64,000 nucleotides of DNA from Candidatus Omnitrophota bacterium. GTDB taxonomy: Bacteria; Omnitrophota; Gorgyraeia; Gygaellales; Profunditerraquicolaceae. Under the pieces are notes generated by a model. The model was not told where the DNA came from and did no database searches. It was given only the letters and a program-made list of their open reading frames with translations. Position 1 is the first letter of the stretch. Every line of letters starts with the position of its first letter. The position numbers were made by a program, and so were the translations under genes. Where the stretch lies: NCBI GenBank assembly GCA_041651035.1, contig JBAZKC010000003.1:5153-69152 (forward strand), written 5' to 3'. This document shows positions 7,608 through 33,903 of the stretch, piece after piece.

Positions 7608-7823
7608 CTACAAATCCAATAGCTTTGAAGGGCTGACTTTAAGCGCTTTGGCAATCCTTACTATGGTAGTTAATCGCACATCTGGAGGGTTTTTACCTTC
7701 AATTCTTTGAAGGTATTTATAGCTGGTCGCAATAAGTTCAGCAAGCTGTTCTTGTGTAATGTCTCGCTTCCGGCGTAGTTCCTTAACTTTCCTACCCAAT
7801 TTTATCCCTGTAGTATTATTCAT
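7608..7823 (-). CDS. XRE-family (Cro/CI-type) helix-turn-helix transcriptional regulator
   Basis: 71 aa; LGRKVKELRRKRDITQEQLAELIATSYKYLQRIE is a canonical XRE HTH. Confidence 0.8.
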   Translation of the reverse strand: MNNTTGIKLGRKVKELRRKRDITQEQLAELIATSYKYLQRIEGKNPPDVRLTTIVRIAKALKVSPSKLLDL

Positions 7824-9880: not shown

Positions 9881-9937
9881 TAATTTTAGTTAGATTTTGC
9901 CACTTCCTACGTCTATTATAATAGGAGATGGAGAGAT

Positions 9938-10237
9938 ATGGTTCATTGTCCAGATGAGAACGATATGGCCTGTTACTTTGACGGATTGCTGTCCGAGGAT
10001 AAGGTAGGGCAGCTAGAAGAGCATTTTGTAGGATGTAAGAGATGTAGGGAGATCGTGGCTATTACAAGGCAAATTATGAGTCAAAAACCGAATTTCCTTG
10101 ACAATAGTCAGAGAAGCGGTAATATAAAGTCAACAATCAGGTGTGTCCCGTGTTTGAAGGGGGAAGTCCCGGACGTTAAAAAAGTAAAACCTTCGCTACA
10201 GGCGAGTTTGCCAAGCGAGGGTTTTTTGTTTTATTAA
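9938..10237 (+). CDS. Putative zinc-finger (zf-HC2) anti-sigma-factor N-terminal domain protein
   Basis: MACYFDGLLSEDKVGQLEEHFVGCKRCRE matches the HxxxCxxC anti-sigma zf-HC2 motif. Confidence 0.5.
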   Translation: MVHCPDENDMACYFDGLLSEDKVGQLEEHFVGCKRCREIVAITRQIMSQKPNFLDNSQRSGNIKSTIRCVPCLKGEVPDVKKVKPSLQASLPSEGFLFY

Positions 10238-12722: not shown

Positions 12723-15156
12723 TCTAATACAGCGAATTAAGGACTTTAAACCAACAGAAGCATATGTTTTAACCTTCTCTATTGACCTTCATTATTATGA
12801 AGGATTTTTTCTACCTCTGATTCAACAGCTTGGATGTACAAAGAATATAGTTATTGCAGATAGTAACAAAATCAGCGAAAATTTAGAAACCAATTCCTCA
12901 TACATTAACAAACTTGGCAGAGAGTATCTATTAATACCAATTCATTCCGACTTTGCTTTCCATCCCAAAATCTATTTGTTTAAAAAAGTGCTTAAGGATA
13001 CTACTTCTTTGCTATGTTTTGTAGGAAGTGGCAATCTCACGTATCCTGGCTTAAATACCAATCAAGAAATATTCGTTGAAGAGATATGGGAAAAGACTGG
13101 GCGTCCACCTCAGTTTTGGAACGAAGTATCAGAATATTTCAATGTAATTCTAGGATCATGCCGCGGAGAAGCGGCAAAACTGGTAAAGAAATGGTTATCG
13201 TACAGTTATCCTCAGCAATTTGAGAAAGAAAATGAGAATCTATCGATTCTTATAAGATATCCTGCTGAAACTAATATCTTTGAGCAGTTTAAGGCAAGAC
13301 TTAAGGGAAAACCTGTAAAAAATATATTTTTAACTGCTCCATTTTATGATGAAGATTTAAGCGCAATAAAAAAAGTTGTTTCGGAATGTAAGCCCAAGAA
13401 GATAGAGCTTCTTATTCAGCCTGGTAAGACAAGCGTAACTACTAAGAAATTCATCTCATTTGTTAAGGCAAATCCAAACATTACTTTAAAAGCATTTGAG
13501 CCAAAGAATTATCTAGGAAGATACTTACACGCAAAAATGATTGTAGCCACTACCGGTGCAGAAGAGCATGTTTTATCCGGAAGCGCGAACTTGTCTGATG
13601 TGGCGCTTCTTGGAAGGCCAAAAGCGTTTAATTATGAAGCTTGTGTATATACGCGTGTAGATTTGAAAAACAGTGTACTTGAACGACTTGGTATAGAAAA
13701 AATGTCAAAGCCCATATCTTTAGATAAGATGCCTGAAACGGTTGTCGAAATAGCATTTAAAGAATCGGAAGGCCCTAAATTTAAGTTAATTTCTTCCGAG
13801 TGCTATGGCGGCAAATGCTATTTCACGGTTATTGGTGCCGAGAAACATTCAACGTTGGATGCAGAACTGCGCTATAGCGATAACAAAAGAGGAACGATCG
13901 TATTAACACAGAAAAAAGATTCAAAAGATACTTTTATTTGTGAAGGAAGAGCGCTGTTCTCTGCTATCGCAGCCAGAATATTGGCAGAGAAAGATCTGTA
14001 TACCAAATGGACGCCAATATTATTTGTAGCCGAAATTGAGAGGAGATCAAGAAGGTACTTTGAAAAAGCTGAAAAACTAAAGGATAGTTTCCTGCGTGCT
14101 GCAAATGAGTTAAACAGGGATAATTATCTTGATCTAATCTTTGATAGCTTAATAGAAGATTCTTTAAAAGCGCTTGAAGCAAAGGTTAGTTCTTCCAGGG
14201 TATCACTTAAGGAAGATGATGCAATGAAGGGCGTAGCAACGATAAATATTGAAACTGAAACGCCAATCATAGAGAAGACTGGTGAGTCAACCGCTGGGCT
14301 GGGGTTTAATGAAGGCTTAGACTATGTAATTTCAGTATTGCGTGAAAGACGGCAAGCCGGCTCTATGGAAGAAGACGTAACTAATACCGAACAGGACAAG
14401 GAGTTTGAAGAATACGATCAAAAGCTTCAAGAGTCAACAGAGGCTCAATTGCAGGAAGTAGATATTCTTTATGCAATATCGAGGCGTTTGAAATCAAGGA
14501 GAAGGGTTTTTATCAAGAATGAATCAATTAAAGATCCTGTCGTAAGAAGCTCTTATTTTTCACTGATAGCATTGCCGCACATGCCAAAGTTACACCGGTA
14601 TTATATTGGGGATGACAAGGAAAGGCATTCTTGCGTTAGCGATGATGATTGGAATGAATTTGTTATTGAATCATGCAATTCATTGGGTTTGCTTACGTTT
14701 AAAACACCTTCTAAAGATATTTGGCCTGATTTAGGAGTAGATATATTAAAAAAAGATATTTTTGAAGTTTGCATTGTTTCAATTTTGTATTCTTTTGTTA
14801 CAGTTTATCCAATATTAAAATACAGAAGCAATGCGTTAGGAGATGAAGGGTTTAATAGTTGTTTGCAGCTCAACCGCTTTACCAATCTTTTGGCAGCAAT
14901 GCTACAAAATTATCTTAAAATTGAAGGATCAAGCCCAGATATTCTTAAAGACAAGTTGAATGAAATTCGCGAACATTTCCCATGCGGTTGGTTATTTGTG
15001 GAAAAAAGCCTAGTAGAAGTTTTTGATAATGTATTAGATGTTATTAATCATAATTTTAAGAACCCAAAAGTATGGGAATTCGGAGACCTAAGTTATATTG
15101 CTGGTAAAGGGTTTCTATTACGGGCTAAAGGAAAAAGCATCTTACTCTGGGAATAA
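12712..15156 (+). CDS. PLD-family (HKD-like) nuclease-domain protein with a large unknown C-terminal region (814 aa)
   Basis: Two HxK…GSxN motifs: FHPKIYLFKK…VGSGNLT (aa 84-108) and LHAKMIVAT…SGSANLS (aa 273-293); the Asp of the canonical HxKx4D is replaced. Confidence 0.6.
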   Translation: MELDLIQRIKDFKPTEAYVLTFSIDLHYYEGFFLPLIQQLGCTKNIVIADSNKISENLETNSSYINKLGREYLLIPIHSDFAFHPKIYLFKKVLKDTTSLLCFVGSGNLTYPGLNTNQEIFVEEIWEKTGRPPQFWNEVSEYFNVILGSCRGEAAKLVKKWLSYSYPQQFEKENENLSILIRYPAETNIFEQFKARLKGKPVKNIFLTAPFYDEDLSAIKKVVSECKPKKIELLIQPGKTSVTTKKFISFVKANPNITLKAFEPKNYLGRYLHAKMIVATTGAEEHVLSGSANLSDVALLGRPKAFNYEACVYTRVDLKNSVLERLGIEKMSKPISLDKMPETVVEIAFKESEGPKFKLISSECYGGKCYFTVIGAEKHSTLDAELRYSDNKRGTIVLTQKKDSKDTFICEGRALFSAIAARILAEKDLYTKWTPILFVAEIERRSRRYFEKAEKLKDSFLRAANELNRDNYLDLIFDSLIEDSLKALEAKVSSSRVSLKEDDAMKGVATINIETETPIIEKTGESTAGLGFNEGLDYVISVLRERRQAGSMEEDVTNTEQDKEFEEYDQKLQESTEAQLQEVDILYAISRRLKSRRRVFIKNESIKDPVVRSSYFSLIALPHMPKLHRYYIGDDKERHSCVSDDDWNEFVIESCNSLGLLTFKTPSKDIWPDLGVDILKKDIFEVCIVSILYSFVTVYPILKYRSNALGDEGFNSCLQLNRFTNLLAAMLQNYLKIEGSSPDILKDKLNEIREHFPCGWLFVEKSLVEVFDNVLDVINHNFKNPKVWEFGDLSYIAGKGFLLRAKGKSILLWE

Positions 15157-15273
15157 GAGAAACGTTTTACGGTTTAGCATATACTTTGATAAAAAGAAGA
15201 AGACCGTTAAGTGTCCAAAGCGTGGTGAAGAGGTAAAGATTAGTTGGTATACAAAGATAGGAGGGGTCTTGTT

Positions 15274-16497
15274 ATGGAGTTTAATTGTCCTTTATGCAAA
15301 CAGCCAGTTACTGAAGAGCTATATGGTAAGATCACAGGTATTTGGAAAGAACAAAAAGTAGCCGAAAAGAAATTTAAGCAAAAAGAAAAAGAGCTTATTA
15401 AGCAACAAAAAGCGGATAAAAAACAATTATTAGATGAACGCAGAAAATTAAAAGCTGAGCAAAAAGTAGTAATTGAACAGAAGATCGCTGAAAAAACAAA
15501 GAAACATTCTTTAGAATTAGAGAAGATTCGGTCAGAAAAAGATAAAATTAAAGAGCAGGCAGATAAAAAGATATTGGCTGCTGTCAGGGCTGCCGAAATG
15601 AAAACTAGGAAAGAAATCAATAAGGATCTTAAGAGCAAAATAGATGAATCGGTTACGAAGCAAGTTGCAAAATCAACAGCCAAGGTTCAAAAAGATTTGC
15701 TACGGAAAGATCGAACAATTGATGCAACAAGAAAACAAATGTCGACCCTGCAAGAACAAAATTCAAAACAGCAGCAGCGCATAACTAATTTGGAAACCCA
15801 GCTTAAGAAAGAGACGACTCCGCAAATAGAGGGGTTGCTGTATGAGGATAATTTACTTGAAGCCTTGAAAAAAGAATTCCCGGAAGATAAATTTGAACAT
15901 CCCGGTAAGGGTGGCGATATTATTCAATTTACAATCCATAATCAAAAACAATGCGGAATAATTGTTTATGAGTGCAAAAAAGTTGGCCAATGGCAAATAG
16001 CTCACGCTGAACAGGCAGCTCAAGCTAAATTACAAAGAAAAGCCGATTTTGCTATTTTAGTTACAAATGCGTCAAAGAAAGGCGGAGGAGGATTCTTTTT
16101 AGAAAAAGGAGTTGTTGTGGTTCATCCTGGAGGAGCTTTAGCAATCGCAAGTATCCTTAGAGAGCAAATCGTAAAGATTGCCCAGATGAAGTTAACTCAG
16201 GCTCAGAGAGAAGAAGCTATTGAAAAAACTTTTGAATATTTGCGCGGCCCTGAATTCAAAAACTCATTAGATATTGTTATAAGAAAAACAATAGAAATGT
16301 ACGAGGAGTTAAAAAAGGAATGCCAGGATCATGTTAAGCTATGGAAGAAAAGGTACGATACATTAAAGATTGTCCATTCTAATTCGGTTCAGGTACAGAC
16401 AAAAACGGTAGCTTTAATTTCTGGTAAATCTGAGACAATCCAGCAGGAAGTAGAATCGCATCAATTTCCTGCTTTGCCCGATTTGACTACTCTTTAA
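15274..16497 (+). CDS. Zn-ribbon plus long coiled-coil protein with a C-terminal PD-(D/E)xK-like segment (DUF2130-like)
   Basis: CPLCKQPV at the N-terminus, ~180 aa K/E/Q-rich heptad region, C-terminal GDIIQF…IVYECKKV (D…ExK); RBS AGGAGGGG 7 nt before the ATG at 15274 (the ORF track begins at 15244). Confidence 0.5.
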   Translation: MEFNCPLCKQPVTEELYGKITGIWKEQKVAEKKFKQKEKELIKQQKADKKQLLDERRKLKAEQKVVIEQKIAEKTKKHSLELEKIRSEKDKIKEQADKKILAAVRAAEMKTRKEINKDLKSKIDESVTKQVAKSTAKVQKDLLRKDRTIDATRKQMSTLQEQNSKQQQRITNLETQLKKETTPQIEGLLYEDNLLEALKKEFPEDKFEHPGKGGDIIQFTIHNQKQCGIIVYECKKVGQWQIAHAEQAAQAKLQRKADFAILVTNASKKGGGGFFLEKGVVVVHPGGALAIASILREQIVKIAQMKLTQAQREEAIEKTFEYLRGPEFKNSLDIVIRKTIEMYEELKKECQDHVKLWKKRYDTLKIVHSNSVQVQTKTVALISGKSETIQQEVESHQFPALPDLTTL

Positions 16498-16504
16498 GGA
16501 TTAA

Positions 16505-17428
16505 ATGAAAGCAAACATAACAAACCAAACTCACGACAGACCTTCATTTTACAAGTACGTCTCAAGTGAAGTAGCAAAGAGTGTTCTTACAAATAAAACT
16601 TTGAAATGGAGTTCCCCTTTGCTGTTTGATGATCCATTTGACGTGACTCGCGTATTAGCCGCGGATATTAAAGCTTCTGAAATACAAGAATGTCTCATTG
16701 ATAGTATAATAGACTTAATTAAGAATAATACAGAGGTGCGCTCGGAGTTTAATCCTAAAGTATGTCTTATGATAGAGACCTTAAGGAAATCCGGAAGAAA
16801 TGATGTAAAAGAAGAAATTATTCGTTCGCTTTATGATTTGAAGAATGAGCCAATTATGGAGTCTTCTGCCTTAGGCGAATTAAGAAAAATGTGGGAAGAT
16901 ATGGTTTTAATTTCTCGTATTCTATGTCTCAGCGCTAGAAATAACATTGAACTGATGTGGGATCGTTATGCGGATAAATATAGGGGTGTTGTTCTTGAGT
17001 TTTCTTGTTTGAAGGAGCTTGATAGCCCGTGGCTTATATTTGAACCAGTTCAGTACAGGCCTTCTTTTTTGGATAAGGTTGGTTGGGGAAGAGTGCTAAC
17101 TTTGAATCAAGATGCGGCTACAAAATACATTTTTCATGAAAGCTGTTATACTAAAACATCGGATTGGTCATATCAGGAGGAATGGAGGATAGTAAGTTTC
17201 AAGAGAACAGGAGAAAATGGAGAATATTCGTACTATAAGTTTAATCCAAAAGAATTATCCGCCATTTATCTCGGCCCAGAGATTGTTGCAGAAGACAGGG
17301 AATGTATACTGTCATTACTAAATAATGAGCTATCGCATGTGAAGGTGTACTCCGGGAGTATAACGGTCGGATGCCGTATTGAATTTAGAGAATTACCAAG
17401 TGTTCGCGTAGAGAGATCAGTTGGTTAA
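16505..17428 (+). CDS. DUF2971-like protein
   Basis: N-terminal FYKY…LKWSSPLLFDDPFDV pattern characteristic of DUF2971; starts 8 bp after the preceding gene. Confidence 0.45.
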   Translation: MKANITNQTHDRPSFYKYVSSEVAKSVLTNKTLKWSSPLLFDDPFDVTRVLAADIKASEIQECLIDSIIDLIKNNTEVRSEFNPKVCLMIETLRKSGRNDVKEEIIRSLYDLKNEPIMESSALGELRKMWEDMVLISRILCLSARNNIELMWDRYADKYRGVVLEFSCLKELDSPWLIFEPVQYRPSFLDKVGWGRVLTLNQDAATKYIFHESCYTKTSDWSYQEEWRIVSFKRTGENGEYSYYKFNPKELSAIYLGPEIVAEDRECILSLLNNELSHVKVYSGSITVGCRIEFRELPSVRVERSVG

Positions 17429-17453
17429 TCTTACCCCTTAAAACTGTGCCACT

Positions 17454-17537
17454 TCCAATTGCGTGTACAGAGAGTTTTTCTGACATACCATATTTCTACG
17501 CCGCCTCTTAGGGATTACCTCTTATGATATACGATAA
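17454..17537 (+). repeat. R1 repeat copy 1 (TTCCAA…TACAGAGAGTnTTTCTG…TATTTCT…TAGGG.TACCTC…GATAA)
   Basis: ~80% identical to 21017-21110; located after the DUF2971 gene. Confidence 0.6.
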
Positions 17538-17766
17538 GAAAATTTAAAAAAGGATTTACAATGGGGAAGATGAGGTATAGAATAAATCCATCATTAAGAG
17601 GTGGTAAATGAGGTTTGAATAGCAAAATTTGAAGGCAATTCCTAAAAATAGGGGGGTTGTCTTTTTTAATTGACAGTTCTAATTTTTGAAATATAGAAAC
17701 ATTGCTAATTTATAATCATTTGATTTTTTTAAATCACCCTGAATTTAACGTGGGAGAGGCAATAAT

Positions 17767-20700
17767 ATGTTAAAGATTGATATGAAATTAATGAAAGATA
17801 TATTGCAATCCAAGCCCCTTGTTGTTATTGATCGAGTAATTGAATTTTCTCTTGTGGTCCCAGAAGAGGAAATTAATCCAGTGTTAGAGTTATTTTGCGA
17901 TGCGATTTCAAAGAAGCTTAATTTAAGTAGTGAAAGTGAATTTATTACAAAATCTAGTGAAACAATTTTTGAACAGAATTTAAGTCAAGAGAATAAACAA
18001 TTTGTTGCTATATGTCTACTTAGGATGCTTTCGGCAAATGATAAGTTTTTGCAAAAAGACGTTAATTTTAGGGCGAATGTTTTTAAGCTTTTTGATAATG
18101 TTTTTTTAAATGAAGTCTACATAAAACTTGGTATTTTACCCTCAAGCCAAACTTACGAGAAGGAAAATAGGTTGAAAGACTTGGTCCCGGTTATTGAAAG
18201 CGAGCTGGATGCCTTATTGTCCTCTTTTAATAATATGGAGTCGTTACCAAATTTTAGTCAAAGGTTTATTTCTATAATTCGTTCTAAAAGAGCGAAAAGA
18301 ATTATATGGCCATTTTGCCCAAAGGAATTATTAGATGTTAGATTGATTGGACTTTTCCGTCTTGCTAAAGAATACTTTGAGGCTAAAGGTGATAAGGCTG
18401 TTCAGGTTTTCGAGAAAGTTAAATCAAGTTTTACATCATTTATAAATATTGCTGATGAATTCGGAACTAAGTATAGCAAAAATTACCTTGGAGAATTGGC
18501 TAAGAAATTAAGATTATTAATTGTAGAGAGTTTTAACGAAAGCCCTTTAACGAAATCAACCAATGTCGTAATAAGACCCTCCATAAAGAAATATCCTTTT
18601 TGGGCTGTGGGCAAAATTATAAAGTTAAGTTTTATTGTAGAAAATTTGGGACCGGGTTATGCTTTTAATGTTAATTTAGGGACTAATTCAGAGATTCAGA
18701 TAGATAAAGAAAAGATATATTTAGGGAATCTTGAACCTGGTTTAATGACTATTGAAATTCCAGCAACTATTAATCAAGTTTCGGATTCTGTTAATATTAA
18801 GATTAGGCTAAGTTGGAACAATTTCGATAAGACTGAACAAATCCAGGAGTTTGATTTTAAGTTAGATGGGCAACGGTCAAATATTAAATGGGATGAAATT
18901 GCAAAAGAAGATCCTTATAGTCTTGAACCAATAAGCACAGAGGGTGAGCTTGTTGGTAGAGATGAAATTATTCGTCAATTGAAGGCGCAAGCTCAAGCAG
19001 ATAGCATTGGTTCATCATATGTTTATGGCCAAAAACGCGTTGGTAAAACTTCAATAGTGAAGACATTAAAGATGCAACTTAATAAGTTGCATTCTCAGGA
19101 TTATATGGCCATTTATCTAGAAGCCGGTGATTATATCGATCCAGACTCTAGGAATACCATAAAAAATTTAGGGAGAAAAATATGCAAAGAAATAAAGGAA
19201 TCAGATTTACGTTTTAAGAGTTTGGAAATTCCTTTTTTTGAAAGTGCGCTTTCTCCACTATCTGATTTTTTACAAGAGACATTGAGAATAGTCTCAAATT
19301 TAAGAATATTATTTATTCTAGATGAATTCGATGAGCTCCCAATCGAACTTTACAAACGAGGTTCTATTGGAGATGCATTTTTCCAAACAATTAGGGGTAT
19401 AAGTAATAAGAAATCTTTTGGATTTGTCCTAGTTGGTGGAGAGAAAATGGAACATATTTTAAGTTGCCAAGGTGACGTTTTGAACAAATTTCAACCAATT
19501 AGAGTTGATTATTTTGACAGAGAGCAGCATTGGCATGACTTTGAAGAGCTTGTTAGAAGACCAGTTGCCGATTGGTTTGAAATTCCAGATAATGCCTTAT
19601 TCGCTTTGTATGATCAAACCGCAGGGAATCCGTATTTCACTAAGTTAATATGCCGCTCTATTTTTAAAATCATGTTAGAAAGAAAGGATAGCTTTATAGC
19701 TGAATTAGAAGTAAAAGAAGCCATGGTTCAAGCTTTGCATGTTACTGGTAGTAATAGTTTTCAGCATTTTTGGGAGGATGATATTTTTGAAGTAGGGGAT
19801 AAAGCAGAAGTAATTTCCATGAACAGAAGAAAAGTTTTGCTTGCGTTGACAGAAGTATTTAGGCAGCACCCAGTTGCGAAAAGAGAACAAGTTTTAGCAC
19901 AAGCAAAGAACTATGGAGTTGAGTTAATTATTGAATCCGAGCTTAGAGAGCTTGAGCGTAGAAAAGTGCTTATTTCTGGAGCAGCAGGGTATAAATGTAA
20001 AGTGCATTTTTTTGAGGAATGGCTAAAAGAAAAAGGGGTCAATGAAATCATAACTACATTTACTGATTTAGACAGTATCTTGCTAAGAAAAAAACAAGAA
20101 GAGGAAGCATATGTTCGTTCAGATGAAGTTGTAAGATTGGTAAATAATTGGGGTACATATAAAGGAAGATTAATTACTGAAGATCGGGTGAGAGCATGGC
20201 TTGGTCAATTTGGAGATAATTCTAGTCAAAGACTAGCGTTTTGTATTTTACAAAATATTCGATTTTATAGTAATGATAAAATAAGGGCTAAATTGAAAGA
20301 AGCTCATGGAATCGTGGTTAGAGGACTAGTTCAGAAATACGAAGAAAAGCAGCGTAAGGTATCAAATATCGCAGTAAGCTATTTGGATGGCGTAGGAAAA
20401 AGTGGTGCTGAATTTGCACGACTTTATGCTGATGAGAACAGTATTTATTATAAGAACATAATTGAGCCTAATGAATTTGAACGTCTGGTAAAAAATAACA
20501 ATGGGATTCAGGTTTTGGTTTTTGTCGATGATTTTATGGGTACAGGAAACTCTGCAAAAGAAAATTTTAATAAATTATTTGATAAATATAGTGTATTTTT
20601 AAAAAGTATTGAATTACAAATGTTCTATGTTGCCATTGCTGGTTTTCAAGTAGCAAAAGTTAATCTCGAAAATGAACTTAGTAAATTAAATTTTTCTGTG

Positions 20701-20958
20701 AAAGTACATGTGTGCGATCCATTAGATGATTCTGCGAAGTGTTTTATTGATAAATCACAGATTTTCCCGAATCAGTTAGAGAGGGAAAAGGCGAAGGAGC
20801 TTTGCTCCCGGCTAGGAACGAAATTGCTAAAAGAAGCCCCATTAGGTTATGGAGATTGTCAAGCTACCGTAGTGTTTGAGGAATCGTGTCCGAACAATTG
20901 CCTTCCAATTTTATGGGAAGAGGGTAGTGACTGGGATCCTCTTTTTAAGCGCCTATAA
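17767..20958 (+). CDS. Large P-loop NTPase (STAND/AAA_16-like) with a C-terminal PRTase-like PRPP-loop motif (1063 aa)
   Basis: ELVGRDEII…GQKRVGKTS Walker A; ILFILDEFDE Walker B; near the C-terminus VLVFVDDFMGTGNS resembles the type I phosphoribosyltransferase hhhhDDhh-TG loop; RBS GGGAGAGG; candidate promoter TTGACA…TATAGA at ~17681-17710. Confidence 0.55.
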   Translation: MLKIDMKLMKDILQSKPLVVIDRVIEFSLVVPEEEINPVLELFCDAISKKLNLSSESEFITKSSETIFEQNLSQENKQFVAICLLRMLSANDKFLQKDVNFRANVFKLFDNVFLNEVYIKLGILPSSQTYEKENRLKDLVPVIESELDALLSSFNNMESLPNFSQRFISIIRSKRAKRIIWPFCPKELLDVRLIGLFRLAKEYFEAKGDKAVQVFEKVKSSFTSFINIADEFGTKYSKNYLGELAKKLRLLIVESFNESPLTKSTNVVIRPSIKKYPFWAVGKIIKLSFIVENLGPGYAFNVNLGTNSEIQIDKEKIYLGNLEPGLMTIEIPATINQVSDSVNIKIRLSWNNFDKTEQIQEFDFKLDGQRSNIKWDEIAKEDPYSLEPISTEGELVGRDEIIRQLKAQAQADSIGSSYVYGQKRVGKTSIVKTLKMQLNKLHSQDYMAIYLEAGDYIDPDSRNTIKNLGRKICKEIKESDLRFKSLEIPFFESALSPLSDFLQETLRIVSNLRILFILDEFDELPIELYKRGSIGDAFFQTIRGISNKKSFGFVLVGGEKMEHILSCQGDVLNKFQPIRVDYFDREQHWHDFEELVRRPVADWFEIPDNALFALYDQTAGNPYFTKLICRSIFKIMLERKDSFIAELEVKEAMVQALHVTGSNSFQHFWEDDIFEVGDKAEVISMNRRKVLLALTEVFRQHPVAKREQVLAQAKNYGVELIIESELRELERRKVLISGAAGYKCKVHFFEEWLKEKGVNEIITTFTDLDSILLRKKQEEEAYVRSDEVVRLVNNWGTYKGRLITEDRVRAWLGQFGDNSSQRLAFCILQNIRFYSNDKIRAKLKEAHGIVVRGLVQKYEEKQRKVSNIAVSYLDGVGKSGAEFARLYADENSIYYKNIIEPNEFERLVKNNNGIQVLVFVDDFMGTGNSAKENFNKLFDKYSVFLKSIELQMFYVAIAGFQVAKVNLENELSKLNFSVKVHVCDPLDDSAKCFIDKSQIFPNQLEREKAKELCSRLGTKLLKEAPLGYGDCQATVVFEESCPNNCLPILWEEGSDWDPLFKRL

Positions 20959-21016
20959 AATCTGTATAAAATATTCTCCAGTAGACTTTAACATCTAATC
21001 GTAGCCTTTTCTATAT

Positions 21017-21110
21017 TTCCAAGCTCTATACAGAGAGTCTTTCTGCCGCGCCGTATTTCTGGGCGTCTTTAGCGGGGTACCTCGTTTTAATTAAGATCTG
21101 ATATGATAAA
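21017..21110 (+). repeat. R1 repeat copy 2
   Basis: Matches 17454-17537 with one ~15-bp insertion; abuts the 21116 start codon. Confidence 0.6.
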
Positions 21111-21115
21111 TTATC

Positions 21116-21904
21116 ATGAAAACTAATCCAAATTTTCATCCCCTAGTAGAAAGAACAAGAAAGAGCATTAGTAAATATCCTTTAGACAAAGGTTGTCTTA
21201 TTGGTAGGCGCGAAGGACTTGATATCCGCGTAGGTCCCGATAGTGTAGATAGAGCATTAAAGATTATGGATACCTTGATTCAAGCCTTAGAAGCAAAAGG
21301 AGGACAGGTTTCTATAATTAAGAAAGACTATTATAAGAATCCCACTTGTGTTAATCTTTCTGGCGTAACCCTTGAATTCGACATTTATGAGAAAATAAAT
21401 ATTCTAAAGAATGGGCAGGATAAATTTGGTTATAACCAATTAGATTATATCCCTAACGGTAAGCTGGTTTTAAGGATTAAAAATACCTATGCTAATCGCA
21501 GCGAATGGAAAGACGGTGACCGTAAGAAGCTAGAAGATCAAATAGATAGTTTTATCGAAGGTTTGTATGCAGCAGTAGCGAAAGAGAAAGAGCTACAGAA
21601 GGAACGCGATAAATGGAAAGAAGAACAGAAGAAGAGAGATGAATTAGAAAGATTAAAAGAGTTGGAGCAGGAGCGCGTTGCTTACCTTGAAAAAGAAGCT
21701 ATGCGCTGGCAGAATAGCCAGATAATCCGCTCCTATGTGGAAGCCGCTACAAAGGCATATACTCAAAAGAACGGCAAGATCGAACCCGGTAGTGCATTTG
21801 ATAAGTGGAAAGATTGGGCCAAACAGCAGGCTGATCGTTTAGACCCCTTGCTAAATAGGCCGTTATTAGCCAAGAATGAAACAGTAATAAGCGAGAATAA
21901 GTGA
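21116..21904 (+). CDS. Hypothetical protein with a C-terminal coiled-coil (262 aa)
   Basis: ORF; K/E-rich heptad region KEKELQKERDKWKEEQKKRDELERLKELEQ. Confidence 0.4.
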   Translation: MKTNPNFHPLVERTRKSISKYPLDKGCLIGRREGLDIRVGPDSVDRALKIMDTLIQALEAKGGQVSIIKKDYYKNPTCVNLSGVTLEFDIYEKINILKNGQDKFGYNQLDYIPNGKLVLRIKNTYANRSEWKDGDRKKLEDQIDSFIEGLYAAVAKEKELQKERDKWKEEQKKRDELERLKELEQERVAYLEKEAMRWQNSQIIRSYVEAATKAYTQKNGKIEPGSAFDKWKDWAKQQADRLDPLLNRPLLAKNETVISENK

Positions 21905-21963
21905 ATGTCCGCCCATATACGGGTGGACAGGCCTTATCTATCTCTAGTATAACGAATTACGCC

Positions 21964-22118
21964 AATTTATCTCTGATAAAAGCGGACAAAACGGACAAAT
22001 TATCGTATTAACCATTATCTCTGAAGCCCGTAATTTCCTTGCAATTGGCAAAAATCATACCTATAATAAGGACTGCATGGTAAGAGATACTGTTATTAGT
22101 AACACCCATGCGGGGAGC
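21964..22118 (+). repeat. R2 repeat copy 1 (AATTTATCTCTGATAAAAGCGGAC … AATCATACCTATAATAAGGA…GTTATTAGTAACACC…CGGGGAG)
   Basis: Core 22053-22118 aligns with 22973-23037; the upstream TTATCTCT block is also shared. Confidence 0.6.
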
Positions 22119-22201
22119 CAAATATAACTCGAACTTTGCGATTTTCGCAAGGTTCGAAAAGGCCTTCTATAAGACTGCCTGCCGGTAAGCAGGCAAATGA
22201 C

Positions 22202-22230
22202 TTGCAGAGGGTTTTTTGTTGAGGTATAAT
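22202..22230 (+). promoter_or_regulatory. Sigma70-like promoter TTGCAG-17-TATAAT ending 6 nt before the ATG (leaderless-type arrangement)
   Basis: TTGCAG at 22202-22207, TATAAT at 22225-22230, ATG at 22237; no SD sequence. Confidence 0.45.
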
Positions 22231-22236
22231 TAGTTT

Positions 22237-22578
22237 ATGAAAATAATAACAGAAACATTATTATCAGATGAACTTAAGCAGATGGCTGAGGCTACCTTTG
22301 GTAATTTGGTAAAGGCTGTAGTTGATATCGATAGAGAAATTATTGCAGTTGATGCGGAGCTTCACTCTGATTTAGAAGCGTTGCTTTTAAAAGACGGCTC
22401 AAAACAAAAGAATCTCTGGGGTATTAATTTCTATCCAGAAATTAAGGGGGATGATTTTGTTGAATTTGACTCCATGATTAATATGCGCCCGTCTCAAGGG
22501 AATAGAAGCCGCGGTGTTGAGAATGAAGATATGCGCAAGAAGATTATTGCAATAGCTACAAAAAGGATTAAGCGATGA
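22237..22578 (+). CDS. Hypothetical small protein (113 aa), first gene of a translationally coupled pair
   Basis: ORF; stop overlaps the next start (ATGA). Confidence 0.45.
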   Translation: MKIITETLLSDELKQMAEATFGNLVKAVVDIDREIIAVDAELHSDLEALLLKDGSKQKNLWGINFYPEIKGDDFVEFDSMINMRPSQGNRSRGVENEDMRKKIIAIATKRIKR

Positions 22579-22907
22579 ACTATCAACATAAAGATTTAGC
22601 TGCTGGCCGTTGGAGTCAGCTATCCTTGATAGAGCAAATGGCAAATATTGGTAGCGAGGTTGAGCGAGCGCTTAACTGGCGAATAAAGAATAATGTTGAT
22701 TATACTCAAAAGGCATTTGAACGAGCCCTTGAGTTAATCGATTTAACATTAGAAAATGAAAAAAATTATGCACATCTGCAGGAAATTACCCGATTGAGAG
22801 AAGCAATTGTTGATTATTTCTTTGGGGTAAACCAGTTTATTTCTTCAGAAGGCTCTTGGCGGAGTTACTTCTTGCCATTTACCTACGCGTCTCGCAGAAA
22901 TCATTAA
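22575..22907 (+). CDS. Hypothetical small protein (110 aa), second gene of the pair (possible all-alpha MazG/HEPN-like fold, very uncertain)
   Basis: ORF overlapping the previous by 4 bp; WSQLSLIEQMANIGSEVERALNW helix-rich. Confidence 0.4.
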   Translation: MNYQHKDLAAGRWSQLSLIEQMANIGSEVERALNWRIKNNVDYTQKAFERALELIDLTLENEKNYAHLQEITRLREAIVDYFFGVNQFISSEGSWRSYFLPFTYASRRNH

Positions 22908-22930
22908 TTTTTAAGATTAATCTCACCTAT

Positions 22931-23037
22931 AAATTTATCTCTAAAGCTCGGAGTTTTCGTGTATTTGGTCATTAATCATACCTATAGTAAGGAAGTTATA
23001 TAAGAGATATAGTTATTACTTACACCAACACGGGGAG
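22931..23037 (+). repeat. R2 repeat copy 2
   Basis: AATTTATCTCTAAAGCTCGGAG … AATCATACCTATAGTAAGGA…AGTTATTACTTACACC…CGGGGAG. Confidence 0.6.
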
Positions 23038-23069
23038 TAAAAATAAAAAGGTATTTATAAATTATTTTC

Positions 23070-23097
23070 TTGAAAATCTTGCTATTTATGCTATAAA
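23070..23097 (+). promoter_or_regulatory. Sigma70-like promoter TTGAAA-16-TATAAA ending 7 nt before the ATG (leaderless-type)
   Basis: TTGAAA at 23070-23075, TATAAA at 23092-23097, ATG at 23105; no SD sequence. Confidence 0.4.
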
Positions 23098-23104
23098 ATA
23101 ATTT

Positions 23105-25435
23105 ATGTTTAAGTATAAATTTGTTGCTTTTGTCGCTTTAGTTTGTTTGGTATTATCTTTTACCACCACCCTTGCCTTTGCCGATAGCCCCAACAGCTCT
23201 CCCGTAAAAGTACAAATCTCAGCCTACGGCTCCAACGAAAGGAGCCAAAGAGGGCTTTTTACCACAGACTTTATCGTTCCTCTATATTATCCTGAAAACA
23301 AAAACACACTCTTTTTCTTTAACCCTAAATATACCTACACGACCCCGGATGCCGATGAGATCAACCAAGGCATAGGCCTGCGCCACATCTTCGATGATTC
23401 GTTTATCTTAGGGATAAACATCTTCTTCGACCGCCGCCTCGCTCATTCAGGCAAGTGGTATTCCCAGGCAGGCCTAGGTTTAGAATACCTCTCGCACCCC
23501 CTGGATGTACGCCTGAACTGGTACAAGCCTTTAACCAGGCCTAAAGTAGTAGATACAACCTACGGCTTCGGTTCCACAAGTTTAATCCAGTATGACAGTA
23601 AAGAAGAACCTCTCCAGGGCCTTGATTTTGAAGTTGGTGTCCCTGTCTTTGACCAATACACTAAGACACGCCTTTATCTCGGCGGCTTTTTTTACCAGTC
23701 CCGCTTGAGCAAAGACGTAAACGGATTCCGCACCAGGACCGAGACCAGCCTTGCTAAATGGCTTAGCCTGGACGCAACTTTTGAGTCTAAGTCTGACGGC
23801 CAGACTAAACTCTACGGCGGGGCGAGGGTCATTCTTCCCTTTGAATGGACCAAGCTCTTTAGAAAGAAGAGTAAGCAGGAATCTTCATCCCCGGCAGTTC
23901 CCAATACCTATATTGAAGACCGTATTTTTGACAGGGTAGTACGGGATATTGATATCCAGAGTAAGAGCTCTACTGCAGAGTCAAAAGAGAATGACTTAGT
24001 CTACGTGGATAACTCCAATACCTCAGGCACTGAAGACGGCTCCCTCCAGCACCCGTATAACACAATACAGGAGGGCGTTAACAATGCCTTTGGCGACAAG
24101 TGGGTCTATGTTAAAGAAGGCTTAAGCCAAGAGTCTACCCCTACATATTATGCCGCGGTTGACCTTACGAGCCATGATGATGTTGTATTATGGGGCAGCG
24201 GCTACGATGGGGGTTTTAAGGGTATAACTGCTCCGGGATATCCGGTTATTGATGGAGGGGGCTCGGATGATGATATCATTACCCTCGGGGATAAGAACAC
24301 CATCATGGGGCTACAGATCCAGAATACCGGAGGAAGTTGCATTATCGCAACAGACAGGACCCAGGCAGATATCACAAATAACATAATTAAGAAATTCGGT
24401 TATAATGGAGTATCTCTGGCCAACAACGGTGCAGTAGCGGCTAATTATAACATTAACGACAACATTTTCACTAATGACATTGATTCATACGATGATATAT
24501 GTATAGAAAATTACGGAAGCGGTTTAACAACGGCAAATATACTCAGGAACAATTTTGAAAACAATCTTGTATACCACTTAGGTATGGAAGTTTATGCCTA
24601 CTCTACGGGCCCGGTTAACTGCGTGATCAGGGATAATTCTTTTATTTTTAGCGGGGATAATTCCATGGGGATTTACGGTTGCGCTTTTGATACCAGCCAA
24701 ATGGATTTTATAATTACCGGAAACTCTTTCATCTTTAGTGGGGATTACATGACGGGGATCTACTATGACGCTTATGAGAATAGCCAGGCAAATTATACAA
24801 TTACCGGAAACTCCTATTTGTCTACCGCCACGTATAGTCCGTTTACGTTCGGCGGTCCAAATAATGACGCTACGCTTACCGCGGTAATCAGCGGTAATTC
24901 TTTAACAAGTGATATGGGTATAGATGTAGGCAGCTGGGATAATGCCAATGCCACCTACACTATCTTCGATAATACAATAACCGGATACAACGCTGATACC
25001 AGTTGGCTGGGCATAGAAATTCAATCATATCAGACTTCCAGCCTGTCGGCAGACGTATACGGCAATACCATCACAGGATTCCTCCATCCTCATACACAGT
25101 CTGGAGATCTTGATTGCGGGGCTGTGCAGATTGTAGCAGGTGATAGCGTCTCTTCCAGCGTCAAACTTTACCAAAATACCATAAATAATAATTATTTGGG
25201 AGTGCATGTCCACAACCTCACAACATCCGGGGTATACAACGTAGACTTAGGCGGGGGCACTCTTGGTTCTATGGGTTACAATTCTATCTATGGCAATACC
25301 CTGGATGTCAATAACGAATCCTCCGGCCTGTCTGTCAGCGCCCAGCACAACTGGTGGGGACAGGCCCCGCCTGATGCTGCTAAGTTCAGCGGCACAGTTG
25401 ACTATACTAATTACCTTTATTCAAACCCTAATTAG
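23105..25435 (+). CDS. Inverse-autotransporter-like (intimin/invasin-type beta-barrel) surface protein with a parallel beta-helix repeat passenger
   Basis: Signal peptide (FVAFVALVCLVLSFTTTLAFA); GIGLRH…GINIFFDRR…GLGLEYLSHPLDVRLNWYKPL resembles the IAT beta domain; many repeats like ITGNSFIFSGD/ITGNSYLS/ISGNSLTSD typical of right-handed beta-helix. Confidence 0.5.
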   Translation: MFKYKFVAFVALVCLVLSFTTTLAFADSPNSSPVKVQISAYGSNERSQRGLFTTDFIVPLYYPENKNTLFFFNPKYTYTTPDADEINQGIGLRHIFDDSFILGINIFFDRRLAHSGKWYSQAGLGLEYLSHPLDVRLNWYKPLTRPKVVDTTYGFGSTSLIQYDSKEEPLQGLDFEVGVPVFDQYTKTRLYLGGFFYQSRLSKDVNGFRTRTETSLAKWLSLDATFESKSDGQTKLYGGARVILPFEWTKLFRKKSKQESSSPAVPNTYIEDRIFDRVVRDIDIQSKSSTAESKENDLVYVDNSNTSGTEDGSLQHPYNTIQEGVNNAFGDKWVYVKEGLSQESTPTYYAAVDLTSHDDVVLWGSGYDGGFKGITAPGYPVIDGGGSDDDIITLGDKNTIMGLQIQNTGGSCIIATDRTQADITNNIIKKFGYNGVSLANNGAVAANYNINDNIFTNDIDSYDDICIENYGSGLTTANILRNNFENNLVYHLGMEVYAYSTGPVNCVIRDNSFIFSGDNSMGIYGCAFDTSQMDFIITGNSFIFSGDYMTGIYYDAYENSQANYTITGNSYLSTATYSPFTFGGPNNDATLTAVISGNSLTSDMGIDVGSWDNANATYTIFDNTITGYNADTSWLGIEIQSYQTSSLSADVYGNTITGFLHPHTQSGDLDCGAVQIVAGDSVSSSVKLYQNTINNNYLGVHVHNLTTSGVYNVDLGGGTLGSMGYNSIYGNTLDVNNESSGLSVSAQHNWWGQAPPDAAKFSGTVDYTNYLYSNPN

Positions 25436-25493
25436 CCCTTTGAACGCCTGCCATTTTTTATCTAGCTAGTGTATAAGTGAGATTATACGTTTA

Positions 25494-25535
25494 AAAGCCC
25501 TTGCAAATAAACTACTTGTGAGGGCTTTTTGTTTG
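25494..25535 (+). terminator. Rho-independent terminator
   Basis: AAAGCCCTT…AGGGCTTTTTGTTT. Confidence 0.55.
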
Positions 25536-25564
25536 GAGTAAAATAGAAAAGATGGGAGGGCAGG

Positions 25565-30637: not shown

Positions 30638-30655
30638 ATCAAAGGGAAAAATCAA

Positions 30656-30692
30656 GGGGACGGTTCTCTTCGAGAACCGTCCCCTAGTTTTT
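30656..30692 (+). terminator. Perfect palindrome GGGGACGGTTCTC-ttcg-GAGAACCGTCCCC plus TAGTTTTT (terminator-like; member of repeat family B)
   Basis: Direct inspection; same 13-bp arms recur at 33865-33893. Confidence 0.5.
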
Positions 30693-30920
30693 GAGCAGTT
30701 CTCCTAGTTTTCCCTTGACAATGCCCTTTTTGGTGGTATAGTTAGTATTGACAATTTGGCAGAGCGTGACTGGTGGTCAACATGGGAAACCATGAGGAAG
30801 CGCTTCTAACAGATAGCTAAAACCGTACACCTGGGTTTTTTAAACCAGGTGTTTTTATTTTATAAGCACCCCGGCTTATTGGATTGCCGGGTGCGCCCTT
30901 TCTGGGCAGGGGGTGGTAGC

Positions 30921-33131
30921 ATGTTTACAAGAGGAAGATGGGACAAGACGATAGACGTAAGGGACTTTATCAACAGGAATTATACTCCTTATGACGGTGA
31001 CGGGGCATTTTTAAGCGGGCCTACTCTAAGGACAAAGGCTCTTTGGGAAAAATGCCTGAAACTTTTTGAGCAGGAGAGAAAAAAGGGCGGCGTATACGAT
31101 ATAGATACGCAAACCGTATCTACCATAACCAGCCATAAGGCCGGTTATATAGATAAAAAGCTGGAGATCATTAAAGGGCTTCAGACAGACCAGCCGTTAA
31201 AAAGGGCTATTAAGCCTTTAGGCGGTATCCGGCTGGTGGAAGAGGCCTGCCAGGATTATGGCTATAAACTCAGCCCGCGTGTAAAAGAAATTTACACTAA
31301 ATACCGCACGACCCACAATGACGCGGTGTTTGACGCCTATACCGCGGATATATTAAAAGCCAGGCATACCGGGTTAATCACCGGTTTGCCGGATAATTAT
31401 TCCCGCGGCAGAATAATAGGCGATTTTAGAAGAGTAGCGCTTTATGGCGTAAAAAAGCTTATCGCCGCCAAGAATAACGATAAAAAGACGCTTGAAGATC
31501 ATTCTACCCCGGAAGCTATAAGATTAAGAGGGGAATTGGCAGAGCAGATCAAGGCGCTTGAAGATATTATAGCGTTAGGCAATATGTACGGGTTTGACCT
31601 TTCCCGACCGGCGGAAAACGCCAGGGAAGCGGTGCAGTGGACGTATCTTGCTTATTTATCATCCATAAAAGAGCAGGACGGTGCTGCCATGAGCTTAGGC
31701 AGTGTGAGCAATTTCTTTGATATATACATAGAAAATGACTTAAAGCGCGGGCTTATTACAGAAGAGCAGGCCCAGGAATTGATAGATGATTTCGTAATAA
31801 AACTACGGTTAGTAAGGCACCTGCGCACAAAATCATATTCGGAAATATTCGCCGGGGACCCGGTATGGATCACGGAGAGTATCGGCGGCGTAGGGATAGA
31901 CGGAAGGCACAAGATCACAAAAAGCTCTTACAGGTTTTTACAGACACTCTTTAATTTGGGGGCAGCGCCTGAACCGAACCTTACTGTGCTTTGGTCGTTT
32001 CGCCTGCCTGAGTCTTTCAAGGAATTTTGCAGCCAGGTATCCATAAAGACCAGCTCCATACAATATGAAAATGACGACATAATGCGCCTTATCGGCGGAG
32101 ATGATTACAGTATATCCTGCTGCGTGTCTTTGCTTAAAAATGGCAGTGAAATGCAGTATTTCGGGGCGCGCTGCAATCTGCCTAAGGTGCTGCTGTACGC
32201 TTTAAATGAAGGCAGGGATGAAATAACCGGTGAAAAAGTCGTCCCCGATATCACGCCTATCCAGTCTAATCCTTTAAACCATAGTGAAGTAAAAGAAAAA
32301 TTCCAGCAGGTCTTAAAGTGGACAGTCCGCACTTATGTGGAGGCCCTTAATATTATCCATTCCAGCCACGATACATACTATTATGAAAGGGCGCAGATGG
32401 CGTTATTGGATACCGCGCTCACCCGCTATATGGCTTTTGGTATTGCCGGGCTTTCAGTGGCCGCTGATTCTTTAAGCGCCATACGCTACGCTAAGGTAAG
32501 GGCTGTCAGGAACAAAAAGAACCTGACTACTTCCTTTAAGGTTGAAGGGGATTTTCCGAAATTCGGCAATGACGATGACCGCGTTGACGGCAGGGCGGTT
32601 GACCTGGTGAGTTCTTTTCTGGCGGAACTAAAGAAACATAAGCTTTACCGCGATTCAGTGCCGGCAGTATCCATACTTACCATAACTTCAAATGTGATGT
32701 ACGGAAAGAAAACAGGCGCTACTCCTGATGGAAGGGCTAAGGGTGTGCCTTTTGCCCCGGGCGCTAATCCCATGCACGGAAGGGATGAGAACGGGATCAT
32801 CGCTTCGCTTAATTCCGTAGCCGCTATTCCCTATACTGAATGCCGCGACGGGATATCCAATACTTTTTCCGCGATCCCTCAGGCGTTGGGCAGCAACCAG
32901 GAAAGCAGGATCGCGAATTTAAAAGGCCTGCTGGATGGTTATTTCCTGAAGGGCGCACAGCATTTAAACGTTAATGTCATAGACAAAAATACCTTAAGAG
33001 ACGCCATCAGGCATCCGCATAAGTATCCGCAGCTTACTATCAGGGTATCCGGTTACGCGGTGCATTTTAATAAATTATCCGCTGAACAGCAAAAGGAAGT
33101 TTTAGCAAGGACGTTCCATGAAAGTATGTAA
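30921..33131 (+). CDS. pflB: Formate C-acetyltransferase (pyruvate formate-lyase)
   Basis: N-terminus [35 protein letters not shown] matches the canonical PFL start; glycine-radical motif RVSGYAVHF near the C-terminus; true start taken at 30921 after GGGGGTGG. Confidence 0.9.
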
Positions 33132-33903
33132 AGCAGGAAAGACCGCGGGTAATGTCCATTCTGTTGAAACCTTTGGCGCTAATGAAGGGCCGGGGATCAG
33201 GTTTATAGTTTTCCTGCAAGGCTGCCTAAGCCGCTGTGTCTATTGCCAGAATCCCGATACCTGGAAAGAAGGCGCGGGAAAAACGATGTGGGCAGAAGAA
33301 ATAATAAAAAGGCTGGATAAATGCCTGCCTTATATTAAATCTTCCCATGGAGGCATAACTGTTTCAGGGGGAGAGCCGCTTTTGCAGATGGATTTCTTGC
33401 GCGAGCTGTTTCGGCTTTGTAAAGATAGGAAAGTGCATACTGCCATAGATACCAGCGCGTTTTACCGCGAAAGCGATGAATCAAAACTAGCCGCGCTCCT
33501 GGATTTAACTGATTTGTTCATTGTGGATATAAAGGCAGCCGGCAAAGAGCTGCATAAGCGCATGACCTCAAAAAACCTGGAGCAGGTAACCGGGTTCATT
33601 AAGCTGCTTGAGGATAATAAGAAACCATACTGGATACGCTATGTTTTGGTTCCCGGCTTAAACGATTCCCAGCAGGATTTAAATGAATTGAGCAGTTTAG
33701 TACGTACTTTTCGCTATTGCCGTAAACTCGAATTCCTGCCTTATCATACCCTGGGAAAACATAAATGGAAGAACCTTGGCTTAAAGTATCCTTTAGAAGG
33801 TAAAAAAGCGGCTACGGTTGGAGATATAAAGAAGGCGCAACAGGGACTGGGTCCGATAAAACGCGGGGACGGTTCTCAAAGAGAACCGTCCCCTTTATTC
33901 TAA
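33118..33903 (+). CDS. pflA: Pyruvate formate-lyase activating enzyme (radical SAM)
   Basis: [14 protein letters not shown] (CxxxCxxC) plus the glycine-radical activase pattern; overlaps the pflB stop. Confidence 0.85.
33865..33893 (+). repeat. Palindrome GGGGACGGTTCTC-aaa-GAGAACCGTCCCC (repeat family B) embedded in the last 12 codons of pflA
   Basis: Encodes …[12 protein letters not shown]. Confidence 0.5.

Follow-up and report, generated by a model that had tools for sequence, protein, structure and literature searches.

The 64-kb window analysed here (64,000 nucleotides of contig JBAZKC010000003.1, assembly GCA_041651035.1, from a Candidatus Omnitrophota bacterium) holds two copies of an intergenic repeat, R2, on either side of a two-gene unit. 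The locus raises the question of whether such repeats are the ends of a gene cassette, as a first-pass annotation of this DNA had suggested, or units with a role of their own. The Omnitrophota are uncultured, ultra-small and possibly host-dependent bacteria. We propose that R2 is a regulated, multi-copy small-RNA (sRNA) transcription unit, a proposal whose chance of being correct we put at about even. With its own promoter, a conserved transcribed stretch and usually a terminator, R2 resembles an sRNA gene and not a mobile cassette end. Features described below lie on the plus strand unless stated otherwise, positions without a locus name are those of the window, and copies on other contigs are designated by locus number (L004 and so on).

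An intergenic repeat family of the Omnitrophota

The repeat had been described as bipartite, with copies at 21964-22118 and 22931-23037. It is real and far above chance, but these limits need revision. In a collinear alignment of 22012-22122 with 22932-23042, 82 of 112 positions (73%) are identical; the local score of the two copies is 53, against a maximum of 16 in 500 random windows; and the blocks TAAGAGATANNGTTATTANTNACACC and AATCATACCTATARTAAGGA, for which 0.00-0.02 matches are expected, occur in the 64 kb only at these two sites. What had been taken as the first part of the upstream copy (21964-21990) is an internal repeat, the second box (TTTATCTCT). TTTATCTCT is present three times in this copy, and the box of the downstream copy is collinear with the third (22014-22030). 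Comparison with copies from other genomes places the start of the upstream copy, copy A, at 21905 and its end at 22117. It is a complete 213-nt element that aligns end to end with seven full copies elsewhere. These eight full copies align from ATGTCC to GGGGAG at pairwise identities of 74-94%; seven measure 211-213 nt, and that of L005, with a 29-nt deletion, 184 nt. The left edge of copy A is sharp, directly past the TGA (21902-21904) of a 262-aa gene, and cross-locus homology stops at the right end, CCC-ATGC-GGGGAG (22105-22117).

Copy B (22932-23037; E = 9e-15 against the type A profile) is diverged and left-truncated. It retains a box (22936-22942), a -10 element TATAGT (22983-22988), the core (23001-23026) and GGGGAG (23032-23037), and is without the left ~110 nt and the terminator; its -35 is degenerate and its 3' half is like that of the type B copies, in which the sequence is GTTATTACTTACACCAAC. 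A promoter-like TTGAAA-18-TAAAAT (23070-23099) follows, before an inverse-autotransporter gene with its ATG at 23105. Copy B is a decayed copy in which the upstream array, a good -35 and the terminator are gone, so that any transcription still arising there would run into the inverse-autotransporter gene.

Pattern scans and profile searches together found at least 21 copies, type C relatives counted, on 15 contigs from metagenomes or metagenome-assembled genomes (MAGs), nearly all assignable to Candidatus Omnitrophota. Type A includes the eight full copies, copy A among them, type B the copies of L004, L015, L016 and L017, and type C those of L038 (two) and L035/L036. Scanned against one genome per species, the core pattern gave five matches: three in a single Lac Pavin MAG of the Omnitrophota, each on a contig of its own, one at the beginning of a 4-kb contig that had been binned as Dehalococcoidales, and one rejected as a chance match within a Bacteroidetes open reading frame (ORF). 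The core pattern found 12 loci in JGI metagenomes, eight of them true relatives; the other four were discarded as chance or coding matches, one on the same Bacteroidetes contig and three in one coding gene family. Profile searches of all fetched DNA brought in further copies, among them three on L006 (a 4-kb contig), a second one each on L005 and L015, and a partial duplicate on L014. No match reached the gathering threshold of any Rfam 15 covariance model, and nothing relevant appeared at E <= 10 in 21850-23150; on the related loci Rfam gave only unrelated riboswitches and tRNAs. Phage and plasmid collections contained no R2 match, a pattern scan of IMG/VR found no R2, and a literature search found no account of a small RNA, regulon or repeat element in Omnitrophota. 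R2 is a previously undescribed intergenic element of this phylum, absent from Rfam 15 and from the literature searched.

The expectations that further copies would exist elsewhere and that the flanking genes would vary were both borne out: additional copies are present in many genomes, and their neighbours differ between related genomes. These neighbours are unrelated in function (PhoU, sirtuin, crcB, TPR proteins, toxin-antitoxin pairs and others). Clusters of two or three copies within 1-3 kb bracket one- or two-gene units in the window, L005, L006 and L015, with up to three copies in 4 kb (L006). Nearly all copies are co-oriented with the surrounding genes, and full copies begin 0-26 nt past the stop codon of a co-oriented upstream gene. 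The gene upstream of L015 copy b is divergent, and the genes downstream of L015 copy a and of the L035 copy are convergent. Copies shortened at the 5' side start from the -35 (L006b), from the GGACA repeat (L018) or from box 3 (copy B), or consist of the core only (L004). Shortened copies keep the promoter-plus-core end, lose the left end, and adjoin different upstream genes.

Promoter, conserved core and terminator

Full copies share one collinear order: palindrome, TATCTCT boxes, GCGGACAAAAYGGACA direct repeat, sigma-70 promoter, invariant stretch and terminator. The left end is a 26-nt palindrome with a 9-bp stem, ATGTCCGCCC-ATATAC-GGGTGGACAG (TGTCC..GGACA; 21905-21930 in copy A). Its stem is 94% paired across eight copies with no double compensatory change, so that an RNA hairpin and a DNA palindrome are indistinguishable at this end. 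In L038 copy b the half-sites abut (TGTCCGGACA) and therefore cannot form a hairpin, which suggests that it is the DNA that is recognised. Three direct TATCTCT boxes (21939-21945, 21968-21974 and 22016-22022) are kept in types A and B and correspond to CTCT boxes in type C; of six plus-strand occurrences of TATCTCT in the 64-kb window, four lie within R2. The direct repeat GGACAAAACGGACA (21984-21997) is near-invariant in type A and in the type C relatives (L038, L035), and type B has GTGACAAAAGCGACA at this position. Type C (twice in L038, and in L035/L036) keeps the collinear array of palindrome, CTCT box, GAGTTACG, GCGGACAAAACGGACA, CTCTGAAG box and TTGATA-16/17-TATAAT. Its transcribed part differs, being ~60 nt long and ending in GGGACCCCA followed by a U-run. 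One type C copy (L038b) stands directly before an operon for an OmpR-type response regulator and kinase. These features suggest that the upstream ~135 bp is an array to which regulatory proteins would bind. A sigma-54 or PhoB-box reading of the motifs was rejected on inspection, as their spacing and order misfit.

The array leads into promoter P1, TTGCAA and TATAAT with a 17-nt spacer (22039-22067; 10/12 in a consensus scan). All type A copies have TTGCAA or TTGTAA-17-TATAAT, type B has TTGATA-16/17-TATAAT or TATAGT, and type C has TTGATA-16/17-TATAAT. The spacers are unrelated between the three types, which argues that hexamers and spacing are under selection and that this is not mere retention of sequence. 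A variable stretch of ~14 nt separates P1 from the 26-nt core TAAGAGATACTGTTATTAGTAACACC (22081-22106), which spans about +8 to +33 of the predicted start and is invariant in 16 of 16 aligned type A and B copies, partly by ascertainment. The core is kept in L004 despite the loss of the promoter there. Inside it lies an inverted box, AGAGATA (22083-22089), and the match between box and inverted box is never longer than 7 bp, in types A and B alike. The core would be either an operator or an unstructured stretch of the RNA. No ORF is conserved across R2 copies; a micro-ORF, MVRDTVISNTHAGS, near the transcription start was dismissed, its ATG being lost in L012 and absent in type B. A small hairpin around an AGAGA loop and a long-range stem, CUGCAUGG/CCAUGCGG, were likewise set aside on inspection, as neither is maintained across copies.

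Past GGGGAG, an A/U-rich linker leads to the terminator. In copy A this is a branched intrinsic terminator with a U-tract (22163-22217; -31 kcal/mol with the preceding hairpin). Across copies the terminators stand 65-145 nt downstream, with a T-run after them. When the ten homologous simple terminators are aligned, their 12-bp helix is 93% paired and 7 of its 12 pairs have changed on both sides, values that were reached by 0 of 500 shuffles; slid controls were 36-55% paired. Terminator and P1 alike thus look functional. The predicted start and the U-tract are ~90-145 nt apart across copies (~145 nt for copy A). Copy B, L016 and L038b have no terminator.

A second promoter, P2 (TTGCAG-17-TATAAT; 22202-22230, -10 at 22225-22230), overlaps the terminator of copy A, whose 3' arm provides its -35. 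The ATG at 22237 is 6 nt past P2, implying a leaderless mRNA for the DUF5674 gene that begins there. The first-pass annotation had both copies ~90 bp upstream of leaderless-type promoters; this position holds for both, and the spacing is ~85 nt to the -35 for copy A but only ~33 nt for copy B. In L006, crcB is separated from the R2 terminator and its second promoter by a fluoride riboswitch, and in L023 a thiamine pyrophosphate (TPP) riboswitch occupies the equivalent position before the gene. As an observation in its own right, terminators whose 3' arm (TTGNNG) serves as the -35, and whose U-tract serves as the spacer, of the next promoter (TAAAAT or TATAAT) were seen at 25484-25545 as well as 22163-22230 of the window, and at 1085-1140 and 4255-4310 of L023; at 25484-25545 and in other genomes this overlap occurs without R2.

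Taken together, these data lead us to the following proposal. A complete unit starts right past the upstream stop codon with ~135 bp of conserved DNA that most likely binds one or more regulatory proteins. The putative binding array is made up of the TGTCC..GGACA palindrome, the GGACA direct repeat and TATCTCT boxes in three direct copies; a fourth box, inverted, lies just past the start site. Transcription from the near-consensus sigma-70 promoter at 22039-22067 would start near 22074 and would yield a predicted non-coding RNA of 90-145 nt. The 5' third of this RNA includes the invariant and apparently unstructured 26 nt, a candidate seed or protein-binding site. This RNA would end at the intrinsic terminator at 22163-22217, whose descending arm would double as the -35 of the next gene. 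The unit is independent of the downstream gene, given the unrelated flanks, the intervening riboswitches with their own promoter, and the convergent genes in L015a and L035. Like an sRNA gene, it has a promoter of its own, as judged from its sequence, and its own Rho-independent terminator.

Multi-copy families of trans-acting sRNAs with a conserved, regulated promoter include Qrr1-5 of Vibrio, Yfr2-5 of cyanobacteria and OmrA/B of enterobacteria. In layout R2 is similar to these: several paralogous short genes per genome, each with its own promoter and conserved upstream regulator sites, and an invariant, unstructured segment of ~25-30 nt followed by a variable linker and a Rho-independent terminator. 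Unlike these families, with which it shares neither sequence nor an Rfam match, R2 has an unusually long array (~135 bp) that is as conserved as the RNA, and some of its copies are terminator-less.

Several observations weigh against the sRNA proposal. From the DNA we infer that P1 fires and that its transcript is what functions; start site, transcript and transcript length are all predicted. RNAalifold gave no consensus structure for the core and, on either strand of the 213 nt, no covariation and no supported structure. Complementarity to possible targets within the window was limited to 9-10-mers at chance level. The alignment of the core is biased, as most copies were recovered with a pattern drawn from it. 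In copy B, L016 and L038b, with the terminator missing, the core would lie in the 5' untranslated region (UTR) of an mRNA. Finally, conservation upstream of the promoter equals that of the transcribed part, and exceeds it in the deepest comparison, that with type C, so that the DNA module rather than the RNA may be the selected entity. Folds of single sequences, for both copies and both strands, were no better than those of shuffles.

R2 is a concrete, testable candidate for a first sRNA family of the Omnitrophota, with a predicted RNA of ~90-145 nt and a 26-nt invariant segment. It also provides two candidate transcription-factor motifs, the GGACA repeats and the TATCTCT boxes. The overlap of a terminator with the promoter that follows is a conserved feature of its intergenic layout and is useful in annotating Omnitrophota genomes.

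Regulatory DNA, mobile elements and transcript ends

The conservation of the array leads directly to the alternative that fares best, one that we regard as possible though unlikely: that R2 is a shared module of DNA with a cis-regulatory role. The GGACA and TATCTCT boxes would be bound by a common transcription factor, the core (+8 to +33) would be an operator and the short RNA a by-product, and the downstream gene would be transcribed conditionally, by read-through or where the terminator is missing. This would fit the absence of RNA structure and covariation in the core and in the whole element, the recurrence of one 7-bp motif around the promoter, with three direct occurrences upstream and an inverted one downstream, and the type C copies, in which the upstream array is better conserved than the transcribed part. 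It would also suit the terminator-less copies that directly precede genes: copy B (inverse autotransporter), L016 and L038b (the OmpR-type response-regulator/kinase operon). In L038b autoregulation through a direct repeat would be fitting, given that this copy precedes a response-regulator/kinase operon. However, in most copies a strong, covarying terminator and then a second promoter come between P1 and the gene, two copies face genes that are convergent with them, nothing unites the downstream genes, and the core persists without a promoter in L004.

That R2 is a mobile or recombinogenic element, or derived from one, is in our view improbable. Such an element might be a 'promoter cassette' resembling a miniature inverted-repeat transposable element (MITE), or a cassette-delimiting site resembling attC. 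R2 is multi-copy, has a sharp left boundary at a conserved palindrome starting with TGT, and is clustered in the window, L005, L006 and L015; its 5'-truncated copies adjoin different upstream genes. Its neighbours vary: L005 and L013 have 1.5 kb in common at 90% identity, then different genes, then R2. In L014, which is syntenic with 8.9-11.0 kb of the window, a toxin-antitoxin pair comes next and then R2; at this place the window carries its 11-kb defence-like island. At comparable positions, more distant genomes show sequence variants of their own, as at the crcB flanks of L006 and L030 and in the DUF5674 leader of L023. Orthologous response-regulator/kinase operons carry a module of a sister family, R1 (described below), in L037 and a type C R2 in L038, and the L035 copy abuts a large serine recombinase gene.

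Against mobility, the search for hallmarks of transposition or site-specific recombination was negative. The left end (ATGTCCGCCC..) is unrelated to the right end (..GGGGAG or the terminator), so that there are no terminal inverted repeats, and there is no inverted R2 copy in the window. Nor do the eight full copies have target-site duplications, the longest word shared by the left flank and the right region being 4-6 nt, a length matched or exceeded in 131-300 of 300 shuffles. An associated recombinase, for which the first-pass annotation had suggested a check, or a transposase was not called by Pfam within ~10 kb on either side in the window (genes from about 12 to 32 kb). No R2 remnant lies at the far breakpoint of the L005/L013 gene replacement. 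The reading of the repeats as cassette ends is therefore not supported, although the modularity, the further copies and the variable neighbours are real. Further, the orientation of R2 is nearly always that of the surrounding genes, and copies within one MAG (L005/L007, 85%) resemble each other no more closely than do copies from different metagenomes (up to 94%). In two lineages R2 lies upstream of an orthologous 930-aa gene; one lineage has type A there and the other type B, an arrangement that suggests stable inheritance. The DUF5674 pair is found elsewhere without R2 flanks, ~90 kb around orthologues of the SIMPL gene (78-91% identical protein) contain no R2, and phage and plasmid collections gave no match. 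The idea that R2 marks the right edge of a variable region past SIMPL holds for the window and L014 and was abandoned, as eight further SIMPL loci are without R2; likewise R2 does not follow the orthologues of the 262-aa gene in L037 or L038.

Comparison with known repeats is in keeping with these results. The Correia elements of Neisseria, ERIC/IRU and REP/BIME are promoter-bearing intergenic repeats. R2 is like them in being a dispersed intergenic repeat of the 100-300 bp class, often at gene ends; such repeats can give their neighbours promoters or terminators, and their presence differs from strain to strain. It is unlike them in being low-copy and almost always in one orientation, and in lacking both terminal inverted repeats and a target duplication, be it TA or another. 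As with integron attC sites and the Vibrio cholerae repeats, R2 stands right after the stops (0-26 nt) of successive co-oriented small units, has lineage-specific variants, and neighbours toxin-antitoxin and hypothetical genes. In contrast to attC cassettes, however, no IntI-type integrase is nearby, inspection found no R''/R' inverted cores (RYYYAAC..GTTRRRY) at the element ends, the sole palindrome being the 26-nt one on the left, each unit carries its own promoter and terminator and some carry riboswitches, and housekeeping genes with riboswitches lie between copies.

A related, speculative idea is that R2 and its sister family R1 are a portable promoter module, consisting of a regulator-binding array and a promoter with or without a small RNA. 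The module would be exchanged between loci by recombination and would perhaps be a landmark or integration hot spot for swaps of defence and accessory genes. We give this idea little chance of being correct. If true, it would show how promoters and accessory genes are shuffled in a phylum of very poor synteny, and would represent a promoter-level analogue of integron cassettes without a known recombinase.

Similarly doubtful is the possibility that R2 is a 3'-UTR element of the upstream gene, co-transcribed with it, in which the hairpin and boxes would affect 3'-end formation or stability of the mRNA and the internal promoter would be incidental. The position of every full copy 0-26 nt past the stop of a co-oriented gene agrees with this, as does the first hairpin: it is without a U-tract, and transcripts from upstream may therefore continue into R2 and end at its terminator. 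In addition, one L023-type element is placed at the 3' end of thi4, with convergent genes on its two sides. The promoter hexamers are nevertheless maintained across types despite divergent spacers, the upstream gene of L015 copy b is divergent, shortened copies lose the stop-proximal part and not promoter and core, and there is no RNA covariation for a fold of the 213 nt.

Three further candidates gained no support. Type I toxin-antitoxin loci such as SIB/ibs and LDR of E. coli are, like R2, multi-copy intergenic repeats (150-500 bp) with promoters and terminators, sometimes in tandem. This reading was rejected, as R2 has no conserved small hydrophobic ORF, its sole recurrent ORF being on the minus strand (MGVTNNSISYHAVLIIGMIF..), without a ribosome-binding site, and lost in L005, L006a and type B. 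A riboswitch or cis-acting leader is disfavoured by the lack of a covarying aptamer, the unrelated and in part convergent downstream genes, and the separate fluoride and TPP riboswitches that follow R2. An inverton was considered because a 7-bp inverted repeat, TATCTCT/AGAGATA, flanks P1 (67 bp from centre to centre). The internal orientation is, however, identical in all ~20 copies, and there is no invertase in the vicinity. Lastly, chance similarity or a trivial local duplication without function, for which only the presence of just two, adjacent copies in the 64-kb window could speak, is refuted by the alignment score and by homologues at 74-94% identity beside unrelated genes in many metagenomes.

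The bracketed gene pair and neighbouring features

The unit bracketed by copies A and B (22237-22907) consists of a DUF5674 gene (22237-22578; Pfam PF18924, E = 1e-35) and a gene for a conserved 110-aa protein (22575-22907) with 2605 homologues, the closest of which (75-91% identity) are, where named, from Omnitrophota/Omnitrophica. The closest homologues of two further window proteins are likewise, where named, from Omnitrophota/Omnitrophica MAGs. The window belongs to a 199.7-kb metagenome contig (ENA ERZ27247363, k141_2957867). The pair, which is highly conserved among Omnitrophota, occurs with its own ~130-nt leader in four other neighbourhoods at 80-87% nucleotide identity, and in none of these four does a type A or B R2 lie on either side of the pair. 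Before the DUF5674 leader is a type A R2 in the window and L018, and other sequence in L020, L023 and L025, which are distant genomes with their own variants. In L023 and L025 the locus-specific leader starts at GGGGAGCC / GGAGAGCC. Its hairpin (TCGAACTTTGCG..CGCAAGGTTCGA; 22129-22157) is kept in L018, L023 and L025, with compensatory changes from TCGAAC/GTTCGA to TCAAAC/GTTTGA and from TTGCG/CGCAA to TTACG/CGTAA, and GAGGTATAAT..TATGAA is invariant in L018, L020, L023 and L025. The pair (22105-22929 in the window; L018, L020, L023 and L025) thus travels with a leader made up of GGGGAGCC, the compensating hairpin, the branched terminator and the leaderless-type promoter GAGGTATAAT..TATG. An internal deletion in L018 leaves the DUF5674 gene with 13 codons.

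R1, a conserved family distinct from R2, consists of TACAGAGAGTCTTTCTGCCGCGCCGTATTTCTGGGCG and a promoter-like site after it, and is found at 17457-17554 and 21020-21116 of the window and at 7554-7648, 9907-9996 and 14402-14500 of L037. In the window and in L037 alike it lies before the 262-aa gene, and L037 also has it before an AbiEii gene and before the OmpR-type response-regulator/kinase operon, the L038 orthologue of which has the type C module of R2. The 11-kb defence-like island of the window (11028-21904), between the SIMPL gene and copy A, encodes a PLD nuclease with weak similarity to ZacB/DrmC, DUF2130, DUF2971 (PDC-S31) and AAA+PRTase-CE (PRTase type III-A) proteins, and the unknown 262-aa protein. 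In other relatives, integrases, serine recombinases, and CBASS or TIR genes are located downstream of SIMPL. The type C relative of L035/L036 (11900-12135) is convergent with the large serine recombinase gene, its -10 coinciding with the stop codon of that gene, and an excisionase-like HTH_17 gene lies upstream; this site may be an integration junction. In L030, a 30-nt repeat (3157-3186 and 4090-4119) flanks crcB-DUF190, where L006 has R2.

Other repeats and RNA elements were also seen. The window contains two 98-nt copies of a further repeat (4898-4995 and 5034-5131; 94% identical, 136 nt apart), each with a terminator-like hairpin (AACGGTTG..CAACCGTTTTTTG). GC-rich hairpins at gene ends (GGGGACGGTTCT..AGAACCGTCCCC), REP- or terminator-like, occur at 30646-30685 and 33855-33894 of the window, 2135-2205 of L029 and ~15115-15160 of L038. 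In L023, ..CCAGTTGCGAAATTCGTCCATGAGGGGGAGCC with a terminator is present at five sites in 7 kb (1070, 2193, 4239, 5657 and 6593). A ZMP/ZTP riboswitch at 30756-30843 (41.4 bits, gathering score 39) lies directly upstream of a pyruvate formate-lyase-like gene (30849-33131). Within the inverse-autotransporter gene, an 87-nt tandem duplication (24635-24808; 70% identical) presumably represents a repeated beta-helix unit.

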